Source of the DNA: a virus
Direction: 5' to 3' (one strand)
DNA length: 64,000 bases
IMG/VR virus record: IMGVR_UViG_3300030085_004825
Location: 32,001-96,000 of that record
Shown here piece after piece: positions 30,013 to 64,000 of this stretch (positions within the stretch are counted from its first letter, which is position 1; each line of letters starts with the position of its first letter). Both the position numbers and the translations under genes were made by a program. Below the pieces are notes generated by a model. That model had not been told where the DNA came from. It saw only the letters and a list, made by a program, of their open reading frames with translations, and did not search any database.

Positions 30013-32211
30013 ATGTCTGAAATTATTATTTCTCCTGGAGTAGACGTAACAGAAAATGATCAAACTTTTAATTTTCAACAACCTGCTCAAGCTGATGTTG
30101 CTATTATAGGCCCTACAGTAAGGGGAAAAATTAATATTCCTACTATAGTTACTTCATATGAAGATTATATACAAAAATATGGTGATGATTTTTTAAGTGG
30201 GAGTAGTAATTATAACTATTTTACTTCTTTAGCAACGTATAACTTTTTTCAGAATTTAGGAGATGCACCTGGATCAGTCTTAATAACTCGTGTTGTAAGT
30301 GGTAGTACAGTAACAGATTGGACTCCTGCTACATCTTCTAGAATAGAAACTTCTTTTACAGAAATACAAGCTTCAGCAAGTGTTCCTTTTACACCATTTT
30401 TTCCATCATCATCATTTTTTATTTCCCAAGGTGCTTCTTCTGATAATCTTACAGGAACTTTTTCAATAAATGGTATAACTTTAGTTATTACAGGTAGTGC
30501 TCATAATTCTTCTTATAGTGGAAACTTTACTAATACTTCTACTTTAATATATGTCCCTTCAGGTTCAAATGTTGCTAATACGGTAATCTCAGCTTCAGAA
30601 CATTTAGCTGCTAGTAGTTCTTTACCAGCTTATAGTTCTTCTTTAGGAAATATATCATCCTCAGCAGACACAAATAATTTATTATTAACATATATTGGAC
30701 AAAACTCTGCAGGTATAGGAAATAACCAAGTATTTACTTCAGGAAGTACTGCTAGTGGTAACATTACATATACTTTTTCAGGTGGTGTAAATACAGAAGC
30801 ATTTGTGCTAGAAACTATATCTGAGGGAGAAATAATGAATAGTGAGGGTCCTACAGGACCAGATGGTACTTTATTAAGTGGGTCTGAAAATAATTACAGA
30901 TACCAAATAACATCTCCAAATGTAGAAGATGGGACTTTTAATTTACTTATTAGAAAAGGTAATGATACTACAACTTTTCCTTCTGTATTACACACAATAG
31001 GTCCTATTTCATTAGATCCTAATTCTTCAAATTATATTGAAAAAGTAATAGGAAACCAAATTCATACTTTAACCCAAGATAGTACAACAAGTGAGTATTT
31101 CATTCAAACCACAGGCAATTACCCTAACAGATACCCTACTATTAGAGTTAAACAAGTAAATGCTACTACTGTAGATTATTTTAATAATGATGGAACTGTA
31201 AAATCTGAATATACAAGTTCAATGCCTCTTACTCAAAGTGGGGTATTTGGAGGAGCTTTAGGAAATAATATACCAACAAATGCTGCTGGTAACTATTATG
31301 AAAATATTACTGATTCAAACATTCAAGGTCTTTCTCCTAGTAACTATTCTGAATCTATTTCTTTATTATCTAATAAAGATGCTTATAGATATAACACTAT
31401 AATCACTCCTGGATTAATAGCTGATCCTAATTTTTACCCTAATAGTAATATTATTGTTTCTCAATTAATATCTATGGTAGAAAATAGAGGAGATTGTATG
31501 GCTATAATAGATATTTCTAAATACAATGAAAACACTGGCCAGATAATAGCTAATGCTCAAACTAGAAATACTTCATATGCTGCTACTTATTGGCCTTGGG
31601 TGCAAACACCTCTTCCTAATAATCTTTCTACTTTAGTATGGGCTCCTACATCTACTTTTATCCCTGGAGTATATGCCTTTAATGACTCAAATGGTTACCC
31701 TTGGCTTGCCCCTGCAGGCATAAATAGAGGAATTATTAGTAATGCTACTCAAACTGAAAAAGTATTAACTCAAGGTATTAGAGATACATTATATCAAAAT
31801 AGAATTAATCCTGTGACTACTTTTATAACTCCTCAAGGGAATTCTATTGTTGTATTTGGACAAAAAACTTTACAAAAACGTAATACTTCTTTAACACGTA
31901 TTAATGTAAGACGTTTGTTAATTAATTTAAAAAATTACATATCTCGGGTAGCAAATGAATTTGTTTTTGAACAAAATACCCCTGAAACTAGAGAAGATTT
32001 TCTTTCTCAAATTAATCCTTATTTATCTCTTGTCCAACAACAAGAAGGTTTAACAGCTTTTGAAGTAATAATGGATGAAACAAACAATACCCCAGAAATT
32101 ATAGATAACAATAAATTAGTAGGTCAAATTTACATTCAACCTACACGAACAGCTGAATTTATTTTATTAGATTTTAATATCTTACCAACAGGAGCAGAAT
32201 TTCCTAGTTAA
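30013..32211 (+). CDS. Tail sheath protein 1 (T4 gp18-like)
   Basis: ISPGV...E.D, PWLAPAGINRG, RINVRRLL, FVFEQN, IQPTRTAEFI. Confidence 0.95.
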   Translation: MSEIIISPGVDVTENDQTFNFQQPAQADVAIIGPTVRGKINIPTIVTSYEDYIQKYGDDFLSGSSNYNYFTSLATYNFFQNLGDAPGSVLITRVVSGSTVTDWTPATSSRIETSFTEIQASASVPFTPFFPSSSFFISQGASSDNLTGTFSINGITLVITGSAHNSSYSGNFTNTSTLIYVPSGSNVANTVISASEHLAASSSLPAYSSSLGNISSSADTNNLLLTYIGQNSAGIGNNQVFTSGSTASGNITYTFSGGVNTEAFVLETISEGEIMNSEGPTGPDGTLLSGSENNYRYQITSPNVEDGTFNLLIRKGNDTTTFPSVLHTIGPISLDPNSSNYIEKVIGNQIHTLTQDSTTSEYFIQTTGNYPNRYPTIRVKQVNATTVDYFNNDGTVKSEYTSSMPLTQSGVFGGALGNNIPTNAAGNYYENITDSNIQGLSPSNYSESISLLSNKDAYRYNTIITPGLIADPNFYPNSNIIVSQLISMVENRGDCMAIIDISKYNENTGQIIANAQTRNTSYAATYWPWVQTPLPNNLSTLVWAPTSTFIPGVYAFNDSNGYPWLAPAGINRGIISNATQTEKVLTQGIRDTLYQNRINPVTTFITPQGNSIVVFGQKTLQKRNTSLTRINVRRLLINLKNYISRVANEFVFEQNTPETREDFLSQINPYLSLVQQQEGLTAFEVIMDETNNTPEIIDNNKLVGQIYIQPTRTAEFILLDFNILPTGAEFPS

Positions 32212-32258: not shown

Positions 32259-34232
32259 ATGGCAAATTTCACACCCTCACCAGGAGTAACCCTTAATGAA
32301 CTAGACCAGACGTTTCTTACTAGCCAACCTATCCAAGCAGGTGCAGCTATTATAGGCCCTACAGTAAAAGGACCTAATGAATTACCTACTTTAGTAACCT
32401 CTTATTCAGAATATCAAACTACATTTGGAGATATTTTTATTAGTGGTGGTAATTCTCACTCATATTTAACATCTATAGCAGCTTATAATTATTTTAATTA
32501 TGGTGGTGAATCACTTTTAGTTACTCGAGTAACAAGTGGTTCTTTTTCTAGTGCTACATCAAATGTCCCCTCAGGTGCAGAATCTGGTATATTATCTACA
32601 AATGCAGATGCTTTATTATCTTCATTTACTAGCGTAAGTGCCTCAGCAGGTACATATACTAGTTTAGGAACCACAGGTAGTATATCAGGTACAGGAGCAG
32701 TATTATCTGTTACTTTAGATACTACTTCTTCGATAAGTTCAGTTACTGTAACCTCAGGAGGATCAGGATATGCAATTGGAGAAACTTTATCAGTAACAGG
32801 AAGTTTAATTACAGGAGGAGTAACAGATTTAATATTTACTTTAAATGCTGGTGATATTGTTAACCAAAATGTATTTACTTTAGAAACAATAAGTGAAGGT
32901 GTTATTATGAACAATGGAACCCTAGAAACAGGAGGCACACTATCTTCAGGATCAAAAGATAATATAAGATGGGAAGTTACTCAAGTAAATACTGGGTCTG
33001 GTAATTTTAATTTAATTGTAAGAAGGGGGGATGATAATACTACTAACAAAGTTATTCTTGAATCATATAATGGAATTAATTTAGATCCTGAATCTCCAAG
33101 ATTTATTTCTAAAATAATAGGAGACCAGAAATTAGCCTATAATGCTACAACTAACCAAATGGAGACAACAGGTAACTACCCTAACAGGTCCCGATTTGTT
33201 CGTGTAAAAAGTGTAAATTCTTTAACCCCCAATTATCTAAACTCCCTTGGAGAAATTTCAGATTCTTCTTTTACTAGTAAGTTACCTTTAGTAGGTAGTG
33301 GATCTTTTGCTAATGGTGTAGGTGATGTAAATACTACAATAAATTTATATGATGCTATAAACACTAATACTCAAGGATTAGCAGGTAGTGATTATGATAA
33401 CATGATAAACTTACATGGAAATCGTGAAGCTTACCAATTTAATCTTTTATTTACTCCTGGATTATTAAATGATACTCATCCAACCCAAATAACAAACATT
33501 ATTTCTAAAACTCAAGAAAGGGGAGATAATATGTTTGTTTTAGATTTAACAAAATATGACGGTAATTTAGCTGATGCTATAGGAGAAGCCCAAGGAAAAG
33601 ATACTTCATATGCTGCTACTTATTGGCCATGGGTTCGTATAATTGACCCCACAACTGGAAAACATATATGGTCACCAGCTTCAACTTTAATTCCTGGTGT
33701 ATATGCATTTAATGATAAAGTAGCTGCCCCATGGTTTGCCCCAGCAGGTATAAACAGAGGAGGATTATCTAGTGTTCTACAAGCTAAATTTAAATTAACT
33801 CAAGGTAACAAAAATGACTTGTATGAAAATAACATTAACCCAATTGCTACATTCCCTAAACAAGGAGTAGTTGTATTTGGACAAAAAACACTTCAAAAAC
33901 AAGCATCCGCTTTAGATAGAGTTAATGTGCGACGTTTAATGATTGAATTAAAAAATTATATCCGTCAAATAGCAGACACAGTAGTATTTGAACAAAATAC
34001 TTTAGAAACTAGAGGATCTTTTCTTTCTAGAGTAAATCCATATTTAGATGGTATCCAACAAAAACAAGGACTACATGCTTATAAAGTAGTAATGGATGAA
34101 ACAAATAATGGCCCTGCTGTTATTGATCAAAACCAATTAGTAGGTCAAATTTACATTCAACCTACACGAACAGCTGAATTCATTTCTTTAGATTTTATTT
34201 TATTACCAACAGGAGCAGAATTCCCAGCATAA
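32259..34232 (+). CDS. Tail sheath protein 2 (T4 gp18-like)
   Basis: SPGV..NE.D, PWFAPAGINRG, DRVNVRRL, IQPTRTAEFI. Confidence 0.95.
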   Translation: MANFTPSPGVTLNELDQTFLTSQPIQAGAAIIGPTVKGPNELPTLVTSYSEYQTTFGDIFISGGNSHSYLTSIAAYNYFNYGGESLLVTRVTSGSFSSATSNVPSGAESGILSTNADALLSSFTSVSASAGTYTSLGTTGSISGTGAVLSVTLDTTSSISSVTVTSGGSGYAIGETLSVTGSLITGGVTDLIFTLNAGDIVNQNVFTLETISEGVIMNNGTLETGGTLSSGSKDNIRWEVTQVNTGSGNFNLIVRRGDDNTTNKVILESYNGINLDPESPRFISKIIGDQKLAYNATTNQMETTGNYPNRSRFVRVKSVNSLTPNYLNSLGEISDSSFTSKLPLVGSGSFANGVGDVNTTINLYDAINTNTQGLAGSDYDNMINLHGNREAYQFNLLFTPGLLNDTHPTQITNIISKTQERGDNMFVLDLTKYDGNLADAIGEAQGKDTSYAATYWPWVRIIDPTTGKHIWSPASTLIPGVYAFNDKVAAPWFAPAGINRGGLSSVLQAKFKLTQGNKNDLYENNINPIATFPKQGVVVFGQKTLQKQASALDRVNVRRLMIELKNYIRQIADTVVFEQNTLETRGSFLSRVNPYLDGIQQKQGLHAYKVVMDETNNGPAVIDQNQLVGQIYIQPTRTAEFISLDFILLPTGAEFPA

Positions 34233-57612: not shown

Positions 57613-57640
57613 AAAAGGTGTACATTTGTATACCTTTTTT
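57613..57640 (+). terminator. Intrinsic terminator
   Basis: AAAAGGTGTAC-ATTT-GTATACCTTTT with T6; directly followed by ATATTTATA(57641). Confidence 0.7.
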
Positions 57641-57681
57641 ATATTTATACTCAACACACGTTTTATTTTAAATAGTTTTTT

Positions 57682-57951
57682 ATGAAAATTTACAAATATA
57701 TAAAAAGTAGAATTATGGCTTTTAAAGACATGTTTAAAGACAATAATGATGTAAATGAAAAAAACGTAATAGGATTTTTATCATTTGCAGTAATGGTATT
57801 ATTTGCTCTTGCTGATTTAATAACAGGATATTTAGGTAAAGATTTAGTAGTTCAAGAATTTATTTATAATTCTTTTCTAGTAATTACTTTAGGATGTTTT
57901 GGGATAGCAGGAATTGAAAAAATATTTTCTAAAAAAGATAACGAAGAATAA
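57682..57951 (+). CDS. Two-TM membrane protein (holin candidate)
   Basis: Two hydrophobic helices, charged C-terminus, two possible starts (57682/57715); upstream of the endolysin operon. Confidence 0.55.
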   Translation: MKIYKYIKSRIMAFKDMFKDNNDVNEKNVIGFLSFAVMVLFALADLITGYLGKDLVVQEFIYNSFLVITLGCFGIAGIEKIFSKKDNEE

Positions 57952-57953
57952 AT

Positions 57954-60752
57954 ATGAAAAAGTTTTTATTATTATTATTGTGTTTAACTACATTTTTTAG
58001 TTTTTCACAAGAAGTAGCACCAGTTACTTTTAGATTAGATTTAAATGAGGTTATAGATAATGTACCTAATTACGGAGAAGCTCAAGTATTTATACAAACT
58101 AATGTTGCTAATTGGGTTGATATACCAATGGAAGATATAGGTGGAAATGGCATATATAGAAAAAATATTAATATAACCCACCCAGAAGATGAAAATATAG
58201 ATGTATTTTATAGATTTAAAGTAACATCTTTTGGAACTAATGGTTTACCCTATACTTTATGGGAAGGAGGAGTAAATTCAGACCCAACCTGTCTTTTTGA
58301 TCCTAGTACTCAAGGTTTAGCCGGGGGAGATATAAGGAAAGTAGTAGTACCACAAGAACTAATTGATAATGGTACCTATGTTAACCCAACTGGAGAATTT
58401 AAATTAACGCATTGTTTTAATGTATGTGGTAATGCATCATGCCCACCAGAACCTTGTATAAATGGTTTAACTTCAACTAATGCTTATCAACAATGCATTA
58501 ATGGAGGATCCCAAGCTCTTATAGTTTTTGAATGGCAAACTGAATGTGAAATACAATCTGTTGAATATACTAATGCTGAAGGAGTAGGCCCATTTACATA
58601 CCCAGTTAACCCTGATGCTTTAAATTTTGGAGTATATGCAGGAACACCGAATATGCCACCAAATTGGTCTGTAGAACACCAATTAACAGTTAATTTTGCT
58701 GATGGAACCCAATCTGCTCCTATTTTTTATACCCCACAACCATGCATCCCAGGTTGTACTGATCCTAATTCAGTATCATATAATCCATGGGCTAATCAAG
58801 ATGATGGTACATGTTTAAATGCCGGTGGGGGAGAAAATTGTGACCCAGGAGATTATGAAATAACAATATCGGTAACTTTAGATAATTGGCCAGGAGAAAC
58901 ATCATGGACATTAGTGTCGTTGTCTGATGGAGGAATTCCTATACAAATGCCACAAGGAGAATATGATTATTCAGATGTAGGTCAAACATATGATTATACA
59001 GTTTGTATTGATGGTCAAGGAGTTGAACTCATTATAAATGATTCATATGGTGATGGATTAGTAGGTGGTAATACTCCTGGAAATGTTGTTATAACAGACT
59101 GTGATGGTAATATTTTATGGACTTTAACTGATGTTGCACCAAATCTTGATTTTGACTATGTAGCATATTCAGGACCTGTATTTGGAAATGCGTGCAGTGG
59201 AATAACACCTGTTCTAGGATGCACAAACCCAGCATATCAAGAGTATGACCCTACAGCAACAATAGATGATGGTAGTTGTGCAAATTTACATGTATATGGA
59301 TGTATAGATACTACGGCTTATAATTACAATCCTAATGCTACTATGCAAGAAATAATTCCTACTTGCGATTATGAGTTGTGGATTGGAGATGCCGCTGCTG
59401 ATGGTTGGGGTAATTCATACATTGGTATAACCCAAGGAACAAACCAATGGACATTTACAATGGGGCCAGGTTCTTACAGTCAAACATTCCCTTTAACATT
59501 AGACACAGATAAACCTGTCGAAGTTTATTATTTTGAAATAGCGGCTCCACAACAACAAGCACAAGAAGTTGAATTTCAAACATGGCAAAATTCATTTAAA
59601 CTAACTAACGCAGATGGAGTAGTATTAATGCATGAAGGTTCTAATCCTTTTGCAAATAATGGACTAGGAGCTCTACAGCCATTTGAAGGTCCATTTTATG
59701 AAAAATATCAAGCAATACCTTTTTGTGGTGATTTATGTGTTCCTGTCATACTTGGATGTACTGATTCAACATCACTAAATTACAACCCAAACGCAAACAC
59801 AGATGATGGTTCTTGTATTCCAATTATATATGGTTGTACTAATGAATTAGCATTTAATTACAACCCTGATGCTACAGTAGATGATGGTAGTTGTATACCA
59901 ACTATTTATGGATGCACCGACCCATCTTCTTGGAATTACAACCCAGATGCAAATGTTGATGATGGTTCATGTATATATTTTGGTTGTACTGACTCTACAG
60001 CTTTAAATTATAATCCTGCTGCAAATGTAGATAATGGAACTTGTATATACCCAATATATGGCTGCACAGATCCTGAAGCATTTAATTACAACCCTGAAGC
60101 AAATGTTGATGATGGTTCATGTATACCTGTAATTTATGGTTGTATGGATCCTACAATGTTTAATTTTAACCCTATAGCAAACACTGATAATGGTTCATGT
60201 ATACCTGTAATATTTGGTTGTACTGACTCTACAGCTTTAAATTATGACCCAATGGCTAATACAGATAATGGAACTTGTATATTACCACTTACAGGGTGTA
60301 CAGACCCAAATGCTTATAATTACGACCCAACAGCAAATGTACCAGATTCAACAGCATGTTTATATGATGCAGGTTGTATTGGGGGGCCTGGTGAACCTTA
60401 TTGGTTAAATAATCCATGTTTTGCTTGGGTAATAGATGTTGATATTTATTGTTGTGAAGTAGAATGGGATGCTTCATGTCAATCAATGTATAATTACTGT
60501 GTTGATGGTTGGCCTGTAGGAATAGATGAAATGGATATAAATGGAATTATAGTTTACCCAAACCCAACAGATAATATTTTAAACATTGAAACTCATTTAT
60601 CATTTAAATATGAATTAAGAGATGCAATGGGTAAATTAGTATTAACAGGAGAAGATAAACGTTTAGAATTAGGAAAATATGATGATGGAGTTTATTTTTT
60701 AACTATAATTCATAACGAGAAAAAATTTAATAAAAGAATCATAAAACAATGA
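57954..60752 (+). CDS. Exported Cys-rich repeat protein with T9SS type A C-terminal sorting domain
   Basis: Signal peptide ...FSFS/Q; 11 GC(T)D...NY(N/D)P.A..D(D/N)G(S/T)C repeats; C-terminal VYPNP..NILNI...YELRD.MGK.V...L.....GVYFL.I......KRIIK. Confidence 0.9.
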   Translation: MKKFLLLLLCLTTFFSFSQEVAPVTFRLDLNEVIDNVPNYGEAQVFIQTNVANWVDIPMEDIGGNGIYRKNINITHPEDENIDVFYRFKVTSFGTNGLPYTLWEGGVNSDPTCLFDPSTQGLAGGDIRKVVVPQELIDNGTYVNPTGEFKLTHCFNVCGNASCPPEPCINGLTSTNAYQQCINGGSQALIVFEWQTECEIQSVEYTNAEGVGPFTYPVNPDALNFGVYAGTPNMPPNWSVEHQLTVNFADGTQSAPIFYTPQPCIPGCTDPNSVSYNPWANQDDGTCLNAGGGENCDPGDYEITISVTLDNWPGETSWTLVSLSDGGIPIQMPQGEYDYSDVGQTYDYTVCIDGQGVELIINDSYGDGLVGGNTPGNVVITDCDGNILWTLTDVAPNLDFDYVAYSGPVFGNACSGITPVLGCTNPAYQEYDPTATIDDGSCANLHVYGCIDTTAYNYNPNATMQEIIPTCDYELWIGDAAADGWGNSYIGITQGTNQWTFTMGPGSYSQTFPLTLDTDKPVEVYYFEIAAPQQQAQEVEFQTWQNSFKLTNADGVVLMHEGSNPFANNGLGALQPFEGPFYEKYQAIPFCGDLCVPVILGCTDSTSLNYNPNANTDDGSCIPIIYGCTNELAFNYNPDATVDDGSCIPTIYGCTDPSSWNYNPDANVDDGSCIYFGCTDSTALNYNPAANVDNGTCIYPIYGCTDPEAFNYNPEANVDDGSCIPVIYGCMDPTMFNFNPIANTDNGSCIPVIFGCTDSTALNYDPMANTDNGTCILPLTGCTDPNAYNYDPTANVPDSTACLYDAGCIGGPGEPYWLNNPCFAWVIDVDIYCCEVEWDASCQSMYNYCVDGWPVGIDEMDINGIIVYPNPTDNILNIETHLSFKYELRDAMGKLVLTGEDKRLELGKYDDGVYFLTIIHNEKKFNKRIIKQ
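59748..60359 (+). repeat. Eight tandem ~24-27-aa Cys-rich repeats
   Basis: For example GCTDSTSLNYNPNANTDDGSC and GCTDPEAFNYNPEANVDDGSC; three further dispersed copies upstream. Confidence 0.92.
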
Positions 60753-61810
60753 AAAAACTTTTAATTTTATTTCTATTATTACCTGTAATTACATTTAGTC
60801 AAACAGAATCTAAATTTAAAAAAACAGTTAAAAAGATTTTTAAGTATTCTACTTTTTATGGTGCTGTTACTGGTGGTAATTCTATATCTGATGTTAATGT
60901 TTATTCTGTAACAAATGGTTTAGAAACTTCAATTGTTAAAACCCCTTTTGATTATTCAATTGCATTAGGAGTTAGAAAAATAGCTAGATTTGGTTATGAA
61001 AATAGAGCTAATGTATTTTTTGATGGAACAGAAAAAACATATGGTGATGCTGCTACAATTGGTAAGATAAATGGATTTGAATATTTATTTGAAGCAGATT
61101 GGACAAGACAACAAGGTACATCATTTTTAAATCAAGACTATTTTTTAAGATATGTAGCAAAAAATTGGATTGCTAAAGCAGAATATTTAGAAGATGGATT
61201 TGCTGACATTAGATACTTTGAATCCTCAGAAAGATATAGACAAAAAATAGGAAATAAACTATCTTTTAATATAGGTGCAGTACAGCGTATAGCAGAACCT
61301 TATGGTTATAATCCATTAGATCAATGGTTATTATCAAATGGTAGTTTGCATTACACTGACTTAGCACTACAAGAAGGGTATTCTATTGAATTTGATGGTA
61401 ATGGAGGTGTAAATTATTTTAACCCTAATGGAGAATTAGTAGCAGAAAACACCCAAGTATGGGAAGCAGTAACTATACCAGAAGTATTAGCTGAATACAC
61501 AGAAAGAGAAAGAAAAGCATTAAAATATCAATGGAATCATTCATTAGTAATAGGTTTTGATTTTTATCACTATACTAAAGATTTTTGGGTGCATTCATGG
61601 GGTAATGTAATGCCTTTACATTTAGAAACTAAAAGTGATTACTCATACCATAAATTTAATGGTGGGCAATGGATAGATTACTCAGGTGGTTTAATATTTG
61701 GATATAAAATTACTAAAAATTTAGGAGTATTTTTAGAAGGTAAATATAACAAATATTGGAATAGAAAATGGCACGATTTTAGTGTTGGAGTAAATTATAT
61801 AATTTTATAA
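60749..61810 (+). CDS. Putative outer-membrane beta-barrel protein
   Basis: Signal peptide ...ITFS/Q; aromatic-rich alternating strands; ends GLIFGYKITKNLGVFLEGKY...FSVGVNYIIL; ATGA-coupled to the upstream gene. Confidence 0.7.
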   Translation: MKKLLILFLLLPVITFSQTESKFKKTVKKIFKYSTFYGAVTGGNSISDVNVYSVTNGLETSIVKTPFDYSIALGVRKIARFGYENRANVFFDGTEKTYGDAATIGKINGFEYLFEADWTRQQGTSFLNQDYFLRYVAKNWIAKAEYLEDGFADIRYFESSERYRQKIGNKLSFNIGAVQRIAEPYGYNPLDQWLLSNGSLHYTDLALQEGYSIEFDGNGGVNYFNPNGELVAENTQVWEAVTIPEVLAEYTERERKALKYQWNHSLVIGFDFYHYTKDFWVHSWGNVMPLHLETKSDYSYHKFNGGQWIDYSGGLIFGYKITKNLGVFLEGKYNKYWNRKWHDFSVGVNYIIL

Positions 61811-61811
61811 A

Positions 61812-62096
61812 ATGGCAAAAGAATTAAACGAAGACACAGGTTTTAAAGTAAGTATAAAAACTTTAATAGGTATTGCATTTGCAATAGCAACAGTAGTAGC
61901 AATGTGGTATGCGTTACAAGCTGATATACAAGAAGCAAAAGAATTACCCAAACCCCCTGAACCAGAAGTAACTAGAATGGAATTTGACATGAAAGATCAA
62001 ATAGTTAGACAAACTATTATGACAACTCAAGAAGATGTCAAAGAACTTAAAGAAGATATGGATCGCATAGAAGAAAAAATTGATAACCTAAAGTAA
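61812..62096 (+). CDS. Single-TM coiled-coil membrane protein
   Basis: TM LIGIAFAIATVVAMWYAL, Pro-rich linker, C-terminal coiled coil. Confidence 0.7.
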   Translation: MAKELNEDTGFKVSIKTLIGIAFAIATVVAMWYALQADIQEAKELPKPPEPEVTRMEFDMKDQIVRQTIMTTQEDVKELKEDMDRIEEKIDNLK

Positions 62097-62102
62097 ATTA
62101 TT

Positions 62103-62432
62103 ATGAAAAAGGTATTTTTGCTATTATTTAGCATATTTTTTACAATAAGTTGTTATACTCAGATTACTATTAAACATTTTAATGCTTCATGGAATGCTAC
62201 AAATAATGTTACATGGCTTAAAAGCTTAACTGATTGTAGTGTAAAATACTATGACATAACTAAATCTCCTGAACTACAGAAAAAATATAAAGTAGTTGTT
62301 GTTCCAACTATTATAGTATTTCAAGATGGAGAAGAAATAGAGAGATATCAAGCAGATATCTCTTTTAAAATGCCCGCTACAAAAGATGAAGTACAAGAAG
62401 CTATTGATGAAGCTATAATGGGTGGATTTTAA
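62103..62432 (+). CDS. Exported thioredoxin-fold protein lacking CxxC
   Basis: Signal peptide ...CYT/Q; HFNASWNATN replaces F.A.WC..C; KYKV.VVPTIIVFQDGEEI.R. Confidence 0.75.
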   Translation: MKKVFLLLFSIFFTISCYTQITIKHFNASWNATNNVTWLKSLTDCSVKYYDITKSPELQKKYKVVVVPTIIVFQDGEEIERYQADISFKMPATKDEVQEAIDEAIMGGF

Positions 62433-62450
62433 AATTTATAAATATAAAAT

Positions 62451-63368
62451 ATGTTACTAAAAAAAGGATCAAAAGGTAAAGAAGTAAAAGAACTTCAAAA
62501 AGCTCTAGAAATAGGAGCAGATGGTATATTTGGCTCTGGAACAGAATCAGCAGTTAAAAAATTCCAAAAAGATAATGGATTAATAGCTGATGGAATAGTA
62601 GGCCCTGCTACCTGGGAAGCTATAGGAATAGATACAGATACAGATACTACAGCTGAAGAAACAGAGTATACAACTAAAGACGGTTTAATAATTGAACGTC
62701 AATATTTAGATAAAAATGAGTATGTAAGAGATTATGGTAAAATAGAACCACTAGGTTTTTTCCTTCACCATACTGCTGGTTGGGATAACCCATTCGCATG
62801 TGTAAATAGTTGGAATAAAGATAAAAGAGGTAGAGTTGCTACTCAATATGTTATAGGAGGAACTAATGTAAAAGGTAAAGAAGCTAAGTATGATGGTGTA
62901 GTAGTAGAATGTTTCCCAAATAATTATCTAGGATGGCACTTAGGAAAAGTAGGAAATTTTAAAATATCAAAATTATCAGGTGGCGTAGAACTTAATAATT
63001 TTGGTTACTTAACTAAAAAAGGAGATAAATATTATACTTATGTTAATACAGAAGTTAAACCTGAATTTGTTTGTGACTTAGGATATAAATTTAGAGGACA
63101 CCAATACTGGCACGCATACTCAGATAAACAAATTGAATCACTTCGATTATTAATTTTACACTTAAAAGATATTTATCCAAAAATGGATTTAGAAAATGGA
63201 CTTCCAAAATTATTAAAAGAAGGAGTTCATCCAAAAGATGCGTTTGAATTTAATTTAGATGCTTATAATGCAAAACAATTTGGTTTATGGACACACACAA
63301 ATGTTCGTAAAGATAAATTTGATTGCTTCCCTCAACATGAATTAGTTGAGATGCTTAAAGGTTTGTAA
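62451..63368 (+). CDS. Endolysin: peptidoglycan-binding domain plus N-acetylmuramoyl-L-alanine amidase (Amidase_2-like)
   Basis: LKKGSKG.EV..LQ..L...DG.FG..T..AV..FQ...GL.ADGIVG..TW; LHHTAG, WHLG, GVEL.N.G, THTNV...K.DC.P. Confidence 0.9.
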   Translation: MLLKKGSKGKEVKELQKALEIGADGIFGSGTESAVKKFQKDNGLIADGIVGPATWEAIGIDTDTDTTAEETEYTTKDGLIIERQYLDKNEYVRDYGKIEPLGFFLHHTAGWDNPFACVNSWNKDKRGRVATQYVIGGTNVKGKEAKYDGVVVECFPNNYLGWHLGKVGNFKISKLSGGVELNNFGYLTKKGDKYYTYVNTEVKPEFVCDLGYKFRGHQYWHAYSDKQIESLRLLILHLKDIYPKMDLENGLPKLLKEGVHPKDAFEFNLDAYNAKQFGLWTHTNVRKDKFDCFPQHELVEMLKGL

Positions 63369-63389: not shown

Positions 63390-63420
63390 TTGGAGTCCCA
63401 AAAGGGACTCCTTATTTTAC
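63390..63420 (+). promoter_or_regulatory. SigmaA-type promoter overlapping a GC-rich hairpin (probable terminator)
   Basis: TTG(63390)-N20-TATTTTAC(63413); GGAGTCCC-AAAA-GGGACTCC at 63392-63411. Confidence 0.55.
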
Positions 63421-63425
63421 ATGCT

Positions 63426-64000
63426 ATGAAACGATTTTTTCCAATATTAATTTTAATAGCAGCTTTAAGTTTAGCAACTGTAGCTGCTTACTATAGTGTT
63501 TTTGGTATTAGTAAACTATTTTCTTCTCAAGCTAGTGCTGTGATATTAATGGCTGCTATACTTGAGGCCTCTAAACTTATTACTGCTTCTTATTTAGAAA
63601 GATTTTGGCAAACTATTCATTGGGTAAGAAAAACTTATTTAATTTCTGCTTTAATAGCATTAATGGCTATAACTTCACTTGGAATTTATGGGTTTTTAGT
63701 TTCTGCTTATCAAGAAACTGCATATAAAATGCAAGCAATAGATAAACAAGTTGAAGTAAAAGCTAAAAAACGTGATAGATACCAACAACAAATAAAAGAT
63801 ATATCTAAAGAACAAAAAGATATAAACACACAAATAATTGAATTAAGTGAAAGTCTAGGTAATAATGTTATTCAATATACTAATAGTGAAGGACAACTTA
63901 TAACCACACAATCCTCAGCAACACGTAAAATTATCCAACAACAATTAGATGTTCAAACATCTAGAAGAGATAGCTTAACTATTAAACAAGATATTTTAAA
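63426..64000 (+). CDS. Multi-TM membrane protein with coiled coil (partial, runs off the window)
   Basis: Not in the ORF track; translates MKRFFPILILIAALSLATVAAYYSVFGISKLF...LEASKL...ITSLGIYGFL.SAYQ, then coiled coil. Confidence 0.8.
   Translation, partial: MKRFFPILILIAALSLATVAAYYSVFGISKLFSSQASAVILMAAILEASKLITASYLERFWQTIHWVRKTYLISALIALMAITSLGIYGFLVSAYQETAYKMQAIDKQVEVKAKKRDRYQQQIKDISKEQKDINTQIIELSESLGNNVIQYTNSEGQLITTQSSATRKIIQQQLDVQTSRRDSLTIKQDIL

Follow-up and report, generated by a model that had tools for sequence, protein, structure and literature searches.

A recurrent four-gene module of uncultured phages with a predicted type IX secretion cargo, a beta-barrel, a single-span membrane protein and a thioredoxin-like protein

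Genes for type B cargo of type IX secretion systems (T9SS) are reported to be often linked to genes of dedicated outer-membrane carriers (Paillat 2025; Liu 2025), and type A cargo is described as using the general carrier PorV, with no private carrier needed (Liu 2025). On the phage side, variable open reading frames (ORFs) for T9SS cargo were described in 'Cryophage' and called a unique occurrence (Bellas et al. 2020), ORFs with a T9SS sorting domain were noted in the second cluster of crAss-like phages, cluster 2 (de Jonge et al. 2019), and a phage hijack of the host T9SS is proposed in these reports. Here, we analyzed a window of 64,000 nucleotides (nt), bases 32001-96000 of the IMG/VR virus record IMGVR_UViG_3300030085_004825 (122,391 bp, estimated 75% complete), and in it a cassette of six tightly packed genes at positions 57682-63368 of the window, all on the plus strand. 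In order, these encode a protein with two transmembrane (TM) segments (2-TM protein), an exported cargo with a predicted type A T9SS C-terminal domain (CTD), a beta-barrel, a protein with one TM segment (1-TM protein), a thioredoxin-like (Trx-like) protein and an endolysin. An earlier interpretation, made from the letters and their translations (hereafter, the sequence-only reading), had taken the six as one envelope system that uses the host T9SS. As the most likely explanation, at about even chances, we propose that the cassette holds a T9SS cargo carried by the phage, served by an accessory set of three phage proteins and remodelling the surface of the infected cell.

The conserved module consists of four genes, i.e., those for the cargo, the barrel, the 1-TM protein and the Trx-like protein. 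A scan of viral contigs anchored on the barrel gave 111 contigs, 80 of which were kept as loci, and when their gene content was assessed by tblastn, the barrel was present in 80/80, the cargo in 76/80, the 1-TM gene in 76/80 and the Trx-like gene in 73/80, with most misses at contig ends. The 2-TM gene was detected in only 22/80 of these loci and the amidase in only 12/80. When the 1-TM protein was the anchor, at least 529 viral contigs with relatives were found, and this set provided 79 new loci, 39 of them with at least 5 kb on both sides. In these 39 full-flank loci, cargo and Trx-like genes were always present (39/39 each) and the barrel was found in 37/39; the 2-TM gene was observed in 38/79 of the 1-TM-anchored loci. 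The commonest order was cargo, barrel, 1-TM, Trx-like, and in several loci the cargo came after the Trx-like gene, so the linkage was kept despite permutation. The six-gene unit of the sequence-only reading therefore stood as a four-gene core, and the 2-TM and amidase genes dropped out as members. The synteny that it had proposed to look for in the four central genes was found in viral contigs, and the bacterial side yielded only eight contigs of metagenome-assembled genomes (MAGs), which look mis-binned.

These eight contigs (L083-L090) came from a search for the barrel in 185,579 species genomes, one genome each, which found no other loci. Their MAG labels were Nitrosopelagicus, Flavobacteriales, Parvibaculum, Sphingobacteriales, Rickettsiales and Woesearchaeota, and given this incongruent taxonomy, mis-binned phage contigs are the best explanation. 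A first scan of genome contigs with single-sequence patterns had found no relative; the alignment A2 was too diverse for patterns. As an observation in its own right, module-bearing contigs in public MAGs look like viral contamination. At least 4000 relatives of the barrel were found in a set of 5.8 billion proteins, under names that, among the matches listed, never went beyond 'hypothetical protein', and 342 representative clusters were obtained at E ≤ 0.001 in a library of 1.84 billion proteins. The Atlas clusters with the barrel were 100% viral, and a tblastn search of 50,697 deposited phage records gave no match to it. Searches of Pfam, PHROGs, NCBIfam and PDB sequences were likewise without a match for the barrel, also when a profile of 40 sequences was used, and the profile search of the PDB sequences returned nothing at E ≤ 10. 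As far as such searches can tell, the barrel family is new and phage-restricted.

The cargo gene (57954..60752) encodes 932 amino acids (aa), with a signal peptide at aa 1-19, a variable N-terminal part from aa 20 to about 600, repeats at aa 601-802, a Cys-rich knot at aa 803-860 and a type A T9SS CTD at the extreme C-terminus, aa 867-932 of 932 (60552..60749). The N-terminus reads MKKF...FSFSQ and contains a hydrophobic segment at aa 4-22; signal peptides were judged by simple criteria and not by a dedicated predictor. The protein contains 43 Cys, and its Cys-rich repeats comprise eight tandem copies of 26 residues at aa 601-802 and three dispersed ones. With hidden Markov models (HMMs), the last 66 residues matched PF18962 at 34.7 bits (cut-off 27) and TIGR04183 at 35.9 bits (cut-off 23), and the six-frame search of the genome with PF18962 gave 40.2 bits for this domain. 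We then examined the last 110 residues of the window's own cargo and of 73 homologous ORFs, after 5 of 78 ORFs shorter than 400 aa had been dropped. PF18962 was found in 65/74 (E ≤ 0.01) and the type B domain CHU_C in 5/74. Signal-peptide-like N-termini were present in all cargo homologs among the matches listed. Moreover, in this record and in five others of 138-173 kb, one PF18962 protein above the cut-off was found per record, and it was always the cargo of the module.

No recognizable enzyme domain was found in the cargo; the whole protein gave one chance match only against PDB sequences (E 0.85), and an Atlas look-alike search with aa 295-590 returned only scores below 0.9. For its middle region, at least 1233 relatives were found; among the matches listed, PF18962 was present in nearly all and MAM domains in some. 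In the comparison with the nearest relative, locus L003, the neighboring genes were 93-97% identical and the cargo only 74%. The two signal peptides agreed in 18/19 residues, the window cargo had an extra domain at aa 20-171, divergence was greater as far as about aa 600, and from there to the end, through repeats, Cys knot and CTD, the two proteins were nearly identical. Such a pattern would be expected where diversifying pressure acts on the distal tip of a surface protein that is attached to conserved machinery. The repeat GCTDxxAxNYNPxANxDDGSC (window 59754-60359) recurs in a 'virion structural protein' of Synechococcus phage S-CAM3, with 52.9% identity over 11% of the query, and the Cys-rich repeat is accordingly common to exported and virion proteins of marine phages.

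The barrel gene (60749..61810) encodes 353 aa with a signal peptide, no Cys and 18% aromatic residues. An AlphaFold2 model built from a 40-sequence alignment had a mean predicted local distance difference test (pLDDT) of 76.7 and a predicted template-modeling score (pTM) of 0.69, and showed a meander of long strands with an insert of helices and small sheets of about 70 aa, at aa 185-256. When the model was submitted to the VIA fold search, the best matches were Tsx (Z 13.3, root-mean-square deviation 3.7, 186 aligned), KdgM (Z 13.0), the EstA autotransporter beta-domain (Z 12.8) and NanC (Z 12.6); Foldseek gave NanC at E 8.8e-7, and the top matches in both searches were outer-membrane barrels only. 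The nearest named Atlas look-alike clusters were also outer-membrane barrel families, at 0.92-0.93, i.e., at lead level only. The last residue was hydrophobic or aromatic (F, L, Y or I) in 74/77 homologs. In a covariation analysis, ladders connected exactly the neighboring strand pairs of the model, and the pair 72-353 ranked 27th; because the alignment of 276 sequences had an effective number of sequences (Meff) of only 85.5 for 353 columns, this is modest support for the barrel. The control analysis gave 18 antiparallel-supported pairs in the top 100 against 5.6 ± 3.2 (maximum 16 in 500 controls) and a parallel-type support of 18 against 7.4 ± 3.5 (maximum 21). The count therefore shows contact clustering and does not fix the strand orientation. 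By its model and fold matches, the 353-aa protein belongs to the 12-strand class of outer-membrane beta-barrels.

The best-conserved stretch of the barrel, aa 79-106 (window 60980-61066; GVRKIARFGYENRAN...DGTE...), was also the one modeled worst (pLDDT < 50), and covariation suggests a hairpin here, with residues 75-88 paired with 97-110; it is a candidate partner-binding or plug element. A subset of the homologs (L014:7980-9065, L026:7971-9056, L067:8001-9050 and L081:7980-9059) carries twin cysteines, in a lipoprotein-like N-terminus followed by ...SCAVPKKCCAQ.... These recall the twin cysteines that are reported to tie SprF to GldK by a disulfide (Liu 2025), which sit in the C-terminal tail of SprF; the barrel of the window is Cys-free. 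A tiny ORF family of 49-62 aa (...INWINSW..KKEKY...FRFM..N.GFE; examples, L022:1760-1939 and L014:4566-4715) adjoins the barrel in 24/80 loci and had no match in Pfam or PHROGs.

The sequence-only reading had assigned the barrel the role of the module's own T9SS shuttle, and sequence comparison gave no support for this. Against PorP/SprF, there was no PF11751 match, and hhalign reached a probability of 22.4% over 37 columns, confined to the last hairpin, with a profile of 22/25 extracted Flavobacteriales ORFs (three with X were dropped). Against PorV, hhalign gave 2.1% with a profile of 8/9 Flavobacteriales sequences (one wrong ORF was dropped), and neither the barrel nor 40 family members matched NF033710 or NCBIfam at E ≤ 0.1. 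When the FadL-like fold of the PorV type was checked, a FadL homologue scored Z 6.9 versus Z 12.6-13.3 for 12-strand barrels. With these hhalign values, the barrel is not a detectable member of either PorP/SprF or PorV. A complex prediction of barrel aa 20-353 with the cargo C-terminus, run without controls, scored 0.00 against a mark of 0.32 and counts neither way.

The lack of detectable homology to T9SS carriers is what would be expected if two unrelated functions shared one site, i.e., a stand-alone cargo that uses the host T9SS alone, as proposed for 'Cryophage', next to a barrel, a 1-TM protein and a Trx-like protein that do something else, e.g., superinfection block or envelope sensing. 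In agreement with this, a cargo with a type A CTD is described as needing only PorV (Liu 2025), the variable T9SS cargo genes of phages were reported with no partners noted in the description of them (Bellas 2020), and in some loci the cargo is found at the opposite end of the trio. Nonetheless, co-occurrence was near-complete from either anchor (76/80 and 39/39), the linkage persisted though the order permutes, and exactly one CTD protein above the cut-off was found per genome, always beside the trio, in 6/6 records. We regard this explanation as quite unlikely.

The remaining two genes of the core encode small proteins. The 94-aa product of the 1-TM gene (61812..62096) is predicted to be a bitopic inner-membrane protein, with a short N-terminal cytoplasmic part, one TM segment at about aa 17-40 and about 54 conserved, charged periplasmic residues; 22 columns were invariant in 35 sequences. 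The Trx-like gene (62103..62432) encodes an exported protein of 109 aa, which matched Thioredoxin PF00085 at 23.5 bits, exactly at the cut-off of 23.5, and PF13098 at 22.2 bits. Its conserved FNAxWNxxN carries W-N-x-x-N in place of W-C-x-x-C, with N31 and N34 nearly invariant in 40 sequences, and it keeps a VVVPT cis-Pro loop and a conserved C-terminal ...MSDF/GGF. These features indicate a thioredoxin fold that has lost its redox site. The Cys after the signal peptide was not conserved, and thus the Trx-like protein is not consistently a lipoprotein.

Under the surface-remodeling interpretation, the cargo would be exported by Sec, and its folding and disulfide formation would take place in the periplasm. 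Its type A CTD would then be recognized by the host T9SS, which would carry it across the outer membrane. The three small partners would be the accessory apparatus of the phage for this one cargo, with the barrel as an outer-membrane anchor or assembly platform, the 1-TM protein as an inner-membrane tether and the Trx-like protein as a periplasmic holder, and the surface of the infected cell would thereby be remodeled shortly before or at lysis. The 'folding helper', the 'inner-membrane partner' and the surface display of an adhesin of the sequence-only reading would find their places in this scheme. Adhesion or aggregation, receptor masking and superinfection exclusion are possible purposes. 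The interpretation draws its support from the CTD above both cut-offs, the signal peptides, the co-occurrence and the single cargo per genome, and also from the conserved machinery with a variable payload, the barrel fold, the phage restriction and the precedent of type B carrier linkage.

The two flanking genes of the cassette point to lysis. The endolysin gene (62451..63368) encodes 305 aa with PG_binding_1 (59 bits, cut-off 23) and Amidase_2 (27.2 bits, cut-off 26), and the protein matched PHROG endolysin families with E values down to 3e-17. The 89-aa product of the first gene (57682..57951) has two hydrophobic segments, taken as two TM segments, and is 51% identical (E 2e-27) to immuto26A_79 of Flavobacterium phage immuto, whose gene sits directly upstream of those for a 'putative chitinase', which is endolysin-like, and for an annotated holin. 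It matched no holin family in Pfam or PHROGs, and the only match was to TssN, at 21.7 bits, below the cut-off of 30.3; the protein is a candidate lysis-cassette membrane protein, i.e., a holin or antiholin. By tblastn, phage immuto was found to be without the barrel. The 2-TM gene and the amidase thus make up a lysis cassette, and in the window the module is inserted into it.

To describe the neighborhood in other loci, we clustered 720 ORFs within 3 kb of the module from the 80 loci. Endolysin-type neighbors belonged to Peptidase_M15_3 in 14 loci, to the amidase type (Amidase_2) in 12 and to phrog_33083-like proteins in 6; DUF5675, whose function is not established, was counted among them and was found in 10 loci. 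The holin family phrog_3427 was near the module in 22 loci, and it or the 2-TM gene lay within 3 kb in 31/80. In total, an endolysin-type gene was located within 3 kb in 42/80 loci and in 21/43 loci with full flanks. The association with lysis genes of unrelated families is recurrent, yet it was observed in only about half of the loci; in loci without nearby lysis genes, the module lies among genes that look structural. Two proposed matches were rejected, i.e., that of the p200 family to the GH19-like 'chitinase' of phage immuto (E 0.54) and that of the immuto holin to the holin family of about 130 aa beside the module, which is unrelated.

The main rival explanation is that the module is a lysis accessory that breaches the outer membrane, as spanins or disruptins do elsewhere; the 1-TM protein would be the inner-membrane arm and the barrel, together with the Trx-like protein, the outer-membrane arm. 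In its boldest version, the bulky, disulfide-rich cargo would engage or jam the host T9SS translocon and help to open the outer membrane. This is consistent with the position of the four genes in the window, between a holin-like gene and an endolysin in one hairpin-bounded unit, with the non-homologous endolysin-type genes (42/80 loci; 21/43 with full flanks) and holin-family or 2-TM genes (31/80) within 3 kb, and with the i-spanin layout of the 1-TM protein, i.e., an N-terminal TM segment and a charged periplasmic tail. However, 21/43 full-flank loci lacked any gene of the endolysin or holin type within 3 kb. With only about 54 residues, the 1-TM protein's periplasmic tail is short for a span across the periplasm, the post-signal Cys is not conserved in the Trx-like protein, which is therefore not a lipoprotein throughout, and no spanin family was matched in Pfam or PHROGs. 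Moreover, the 50,697 phage records are without the barrel, yet such cultured phages lyse, and it is not obvious why membrane disruption would need a cargo of 700-1100 aa that has a variable tip and domains of the adhesion type. On the other side, only a few of the cultured phages of flavobacteria are described as having annotated spanins (Bartlau 2021), so that the outer-membrane step would be mostly unassigned in this group, and this counts for a lysis role. Collectively, we take a lysis accessory to be possible, if on the doubtful side.

An unlikely but more far-reaching proposal is that the module serves as a self-contained plug-in for the host T9SS. One cargo would come with an evolutionarily new carrier in the outer membrane, a tether in the inner membrane and a holder in the periplasm; the set would be fired with the lysis genes and give a virus a new means of acting on the Bacteroidota envelope. 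It could open the outer membrane via or beside the T9SS translocon at lysis, or it could lay a coat of variable adhesin on the dying cell and its debris; such a coat might steer what the progeny virions meet next.

Returning to the cargo with an accessory set that remodels the infected cell's surface, several points weigh against it. The use of the T9SS by the cargo is predicted from an HMM match and a signal peptide, the barrel is without detectable homology to PorV (hhalign 2%) or PorP/SprF (22%, 37 columns), and type A cargo, by published work, needs only PorV (Liu 2025). The lysis-gene neighborhood (42/80 endolysin-type, 31/80 holin or 2-TM) fits a lysis role at least as naturally, and, beyond the genes, domains, folds and co-occurrence that are shown here, we infer the physical association of the four proteins, the timing and the biological purpose. 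In addition, contigs from RNA libraries covered parts of the cassette only at 90-95% identity, and these may come from DNA carry-over; they hint weakly at transcription.

A different concern is that the region could be an assembly chimera or a recently captured fragment of a host chromosome. The G+C content was 0.356 at 58001-60000, in the cargo gene, versus about 0.29 in the flanks, and this slight rise would fit such an origin; the Cys-, Gly- and Asp-rich repeats of the cargo may be its cause, and the structural genes at 18-26 kb had a similar G+C content, 0.33-0.35. Contigs of an independent study bridged, with 0 mismatches, the junctions 2-TM/cargo, cargo/barrel, barrel/1-TM, Trx-like/amidase and amidase/next gene, and the chimera that the sequence-only reading had named as a risk is therefore rejected. 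The gene set also recurs on more than 100 viral contigs, and in bacterial genomes the barrel family occurs only on the eight MAG contigs of incongruent taxonomy. Capture or chimerism is, in our view, highly improbable.

The cassette lies between two terminator-like hairpins on the plus strand. The first (57613..57638; 11-pair stem, then a T-run) ends the upstream gene and marks the 5' boundary, and the second (63392..63411; 8-pair stem with 6 G-C pairs), directly 3' of the amidase stop, marks the 3' boundary. The spacings across the six ORFs were +2, -4, +1, +6 and +18 nt, and the signal-peptide and TM proteins of the genome cluster at 57.7-64.5 kb. Upstream of the 2-TM gene lies the recurrent, promoter-like intergenic motif TATTTATA (57642..57649, plus strand), within TATATTTATA (57640-57649). 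It was found in 16/33 intergenic gaps of at least 35 nt and was enriched about 8-fold over the genome. Much of what the sequence-only reading had described was thus recovered, i.e., the positions of the six ORFs with their gaps of -4 to 18 nt, a recurrent motif upstream, the 2-TM protein, the 11 Cys-rich repeats of the 932-aa protein and its type A CTD, for which it had proposed the two models whose curated cut-offs were exceeded. The same holds for the signal-bearing beta-barrel (structural model and two fold searches), the single TM segment of the 94-aa protein (hydrophobic-segment analysis), the exported thioredoxin fold without CxxC (PF00085 at the cut-off and NxxN at the CxxC site) and the amidase endolysin (Pfam cut-offs exceeded by both domains).

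The amidase is followed by a gene (window 63390-64000, continuing to G000:C1:96472; L001:7250-8332) for a 360-aa protein that contains a long charged region in addition to four hydrophobic segments. This gene had no family match in PHROGs and, by tblastn, accompanies the module in 5/80 and 18/79 loci. Its annotated TTG start overlaps the terminator-like hairpin, and the real start is therefore probably an ATG a few codons downstream (MKRFF...). In the whole record, 127/130 called ORFs are on one strand, and the virus is identified as a myovirus by its major head protein, its two tail-sheath paralogs, its head-tail adaptor and a protein resembling tail fibres. The tail-sheath paralogs lie side by side (window 30013-32211 and 32259-34232), and both match phrog_23 (E 5e-66 and 5e-71). 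The phage is a large uncultured marine myovirus, and its host is most likely a member of the Bacteroidota. A scan of the window for tRNA genes found none. Outside the window, a 544-aa ORF at G000:C1:115636-117270 has an N-terminus that is GroEL-like by eye; Flavobacterium phage immuto likewise encodes GroES and GroEL.

The main degraders of carbon from algal blooms are marine Flavobacteriia, most of whose phages are uncultured. If the cargo does leave via the host T9SS, this would be a widespread case in which a virus, by means of its own accessory proteins, exploits a secretion system specific to one phylum. As the module is often beside lysis genes, it is also a candidate for the outer-membrane lysis step of Bacteroidota phages. 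The barrel, the 1-TM protein and the redox-dead thioredoxin are three new, well-conserved families, and with their clear genetic context the question can be put directly to the test in Flavobacterium johnsoniae, for which there are T9SS mutants.

Compared with known systems, the barrel shares its fold with Tsx, the KdgM and NanC porins, autotransporter beta-domains and FapF, with 5-14% identity. It has no sequence-level match to them, and it carries the loop insert of about 70 residues at aa 185-256 and the poorly modeled aa 79-106; a fold shared with small 12-strand barrels does not show a shared function. The spanins of the lambda Rz/Rz1 type are alike in that their genes lie in or beside the lysis cassette and in that they combine an N-terminal TM segment and a charged periplasmic tail with an outer-membrane partner. 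In spanins, this partner is a small lipoprotein, whereas in the module it would be a 353-aa integral barrel, and the module also differs in its short periplasmic tail, its T9SS cargo and its Trx-like protein. When the module was searched for a two-component spanin, neither a family match in Pfam or PHROGs nor a small lipoprotein partner was found.

The pairs of type B cargo and PorP/SprF-like carrier, e.g., SprB/SprF of Flavobacterium johnsoniae, likewise place the gene of a large, repeat-rich T9SS surface protein beside a barrel gene, and the barrel is described as having about 300-350 aa, with one per cargo, as in the module (Paillat 2025; Liu 2025; Gorasia 2022). In contrast, the CTD of the module is of type A in 65/74 homologs and of type B in only 5, and the module adds the 1-TM and Trx-like genes, which have no counterpart there, and is carried by phages. 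The likeness to these pairs, including the notion of an 'own shuttle', is an analogy in gene arrangement only.

The sequence-only reading knew of no phage system like this one. For the cargo, this did not hold, since precedents exist (Bellas 2020; de Jonge 2019); for the trio of barrel, 1-TM and Trx-like proteins, it stood, as our literature search found no description of this set, which the supplements of those papers may nevertheless mention. The phages in these reports are described as carrying ORFs with a T9SS type A sorting domain and cargo that varies between close relatives, as here. Their cargos are given as an endoglucanase, a GH39 protein, a PA14 protein or BACON proteins, whereas the cargo of the module is without a recognizable enzyme domain; and where those accounts of the cargo mention no conserved partner genes, the phages analyzed here carry one cargo per genome together with a three-gene accessory set.

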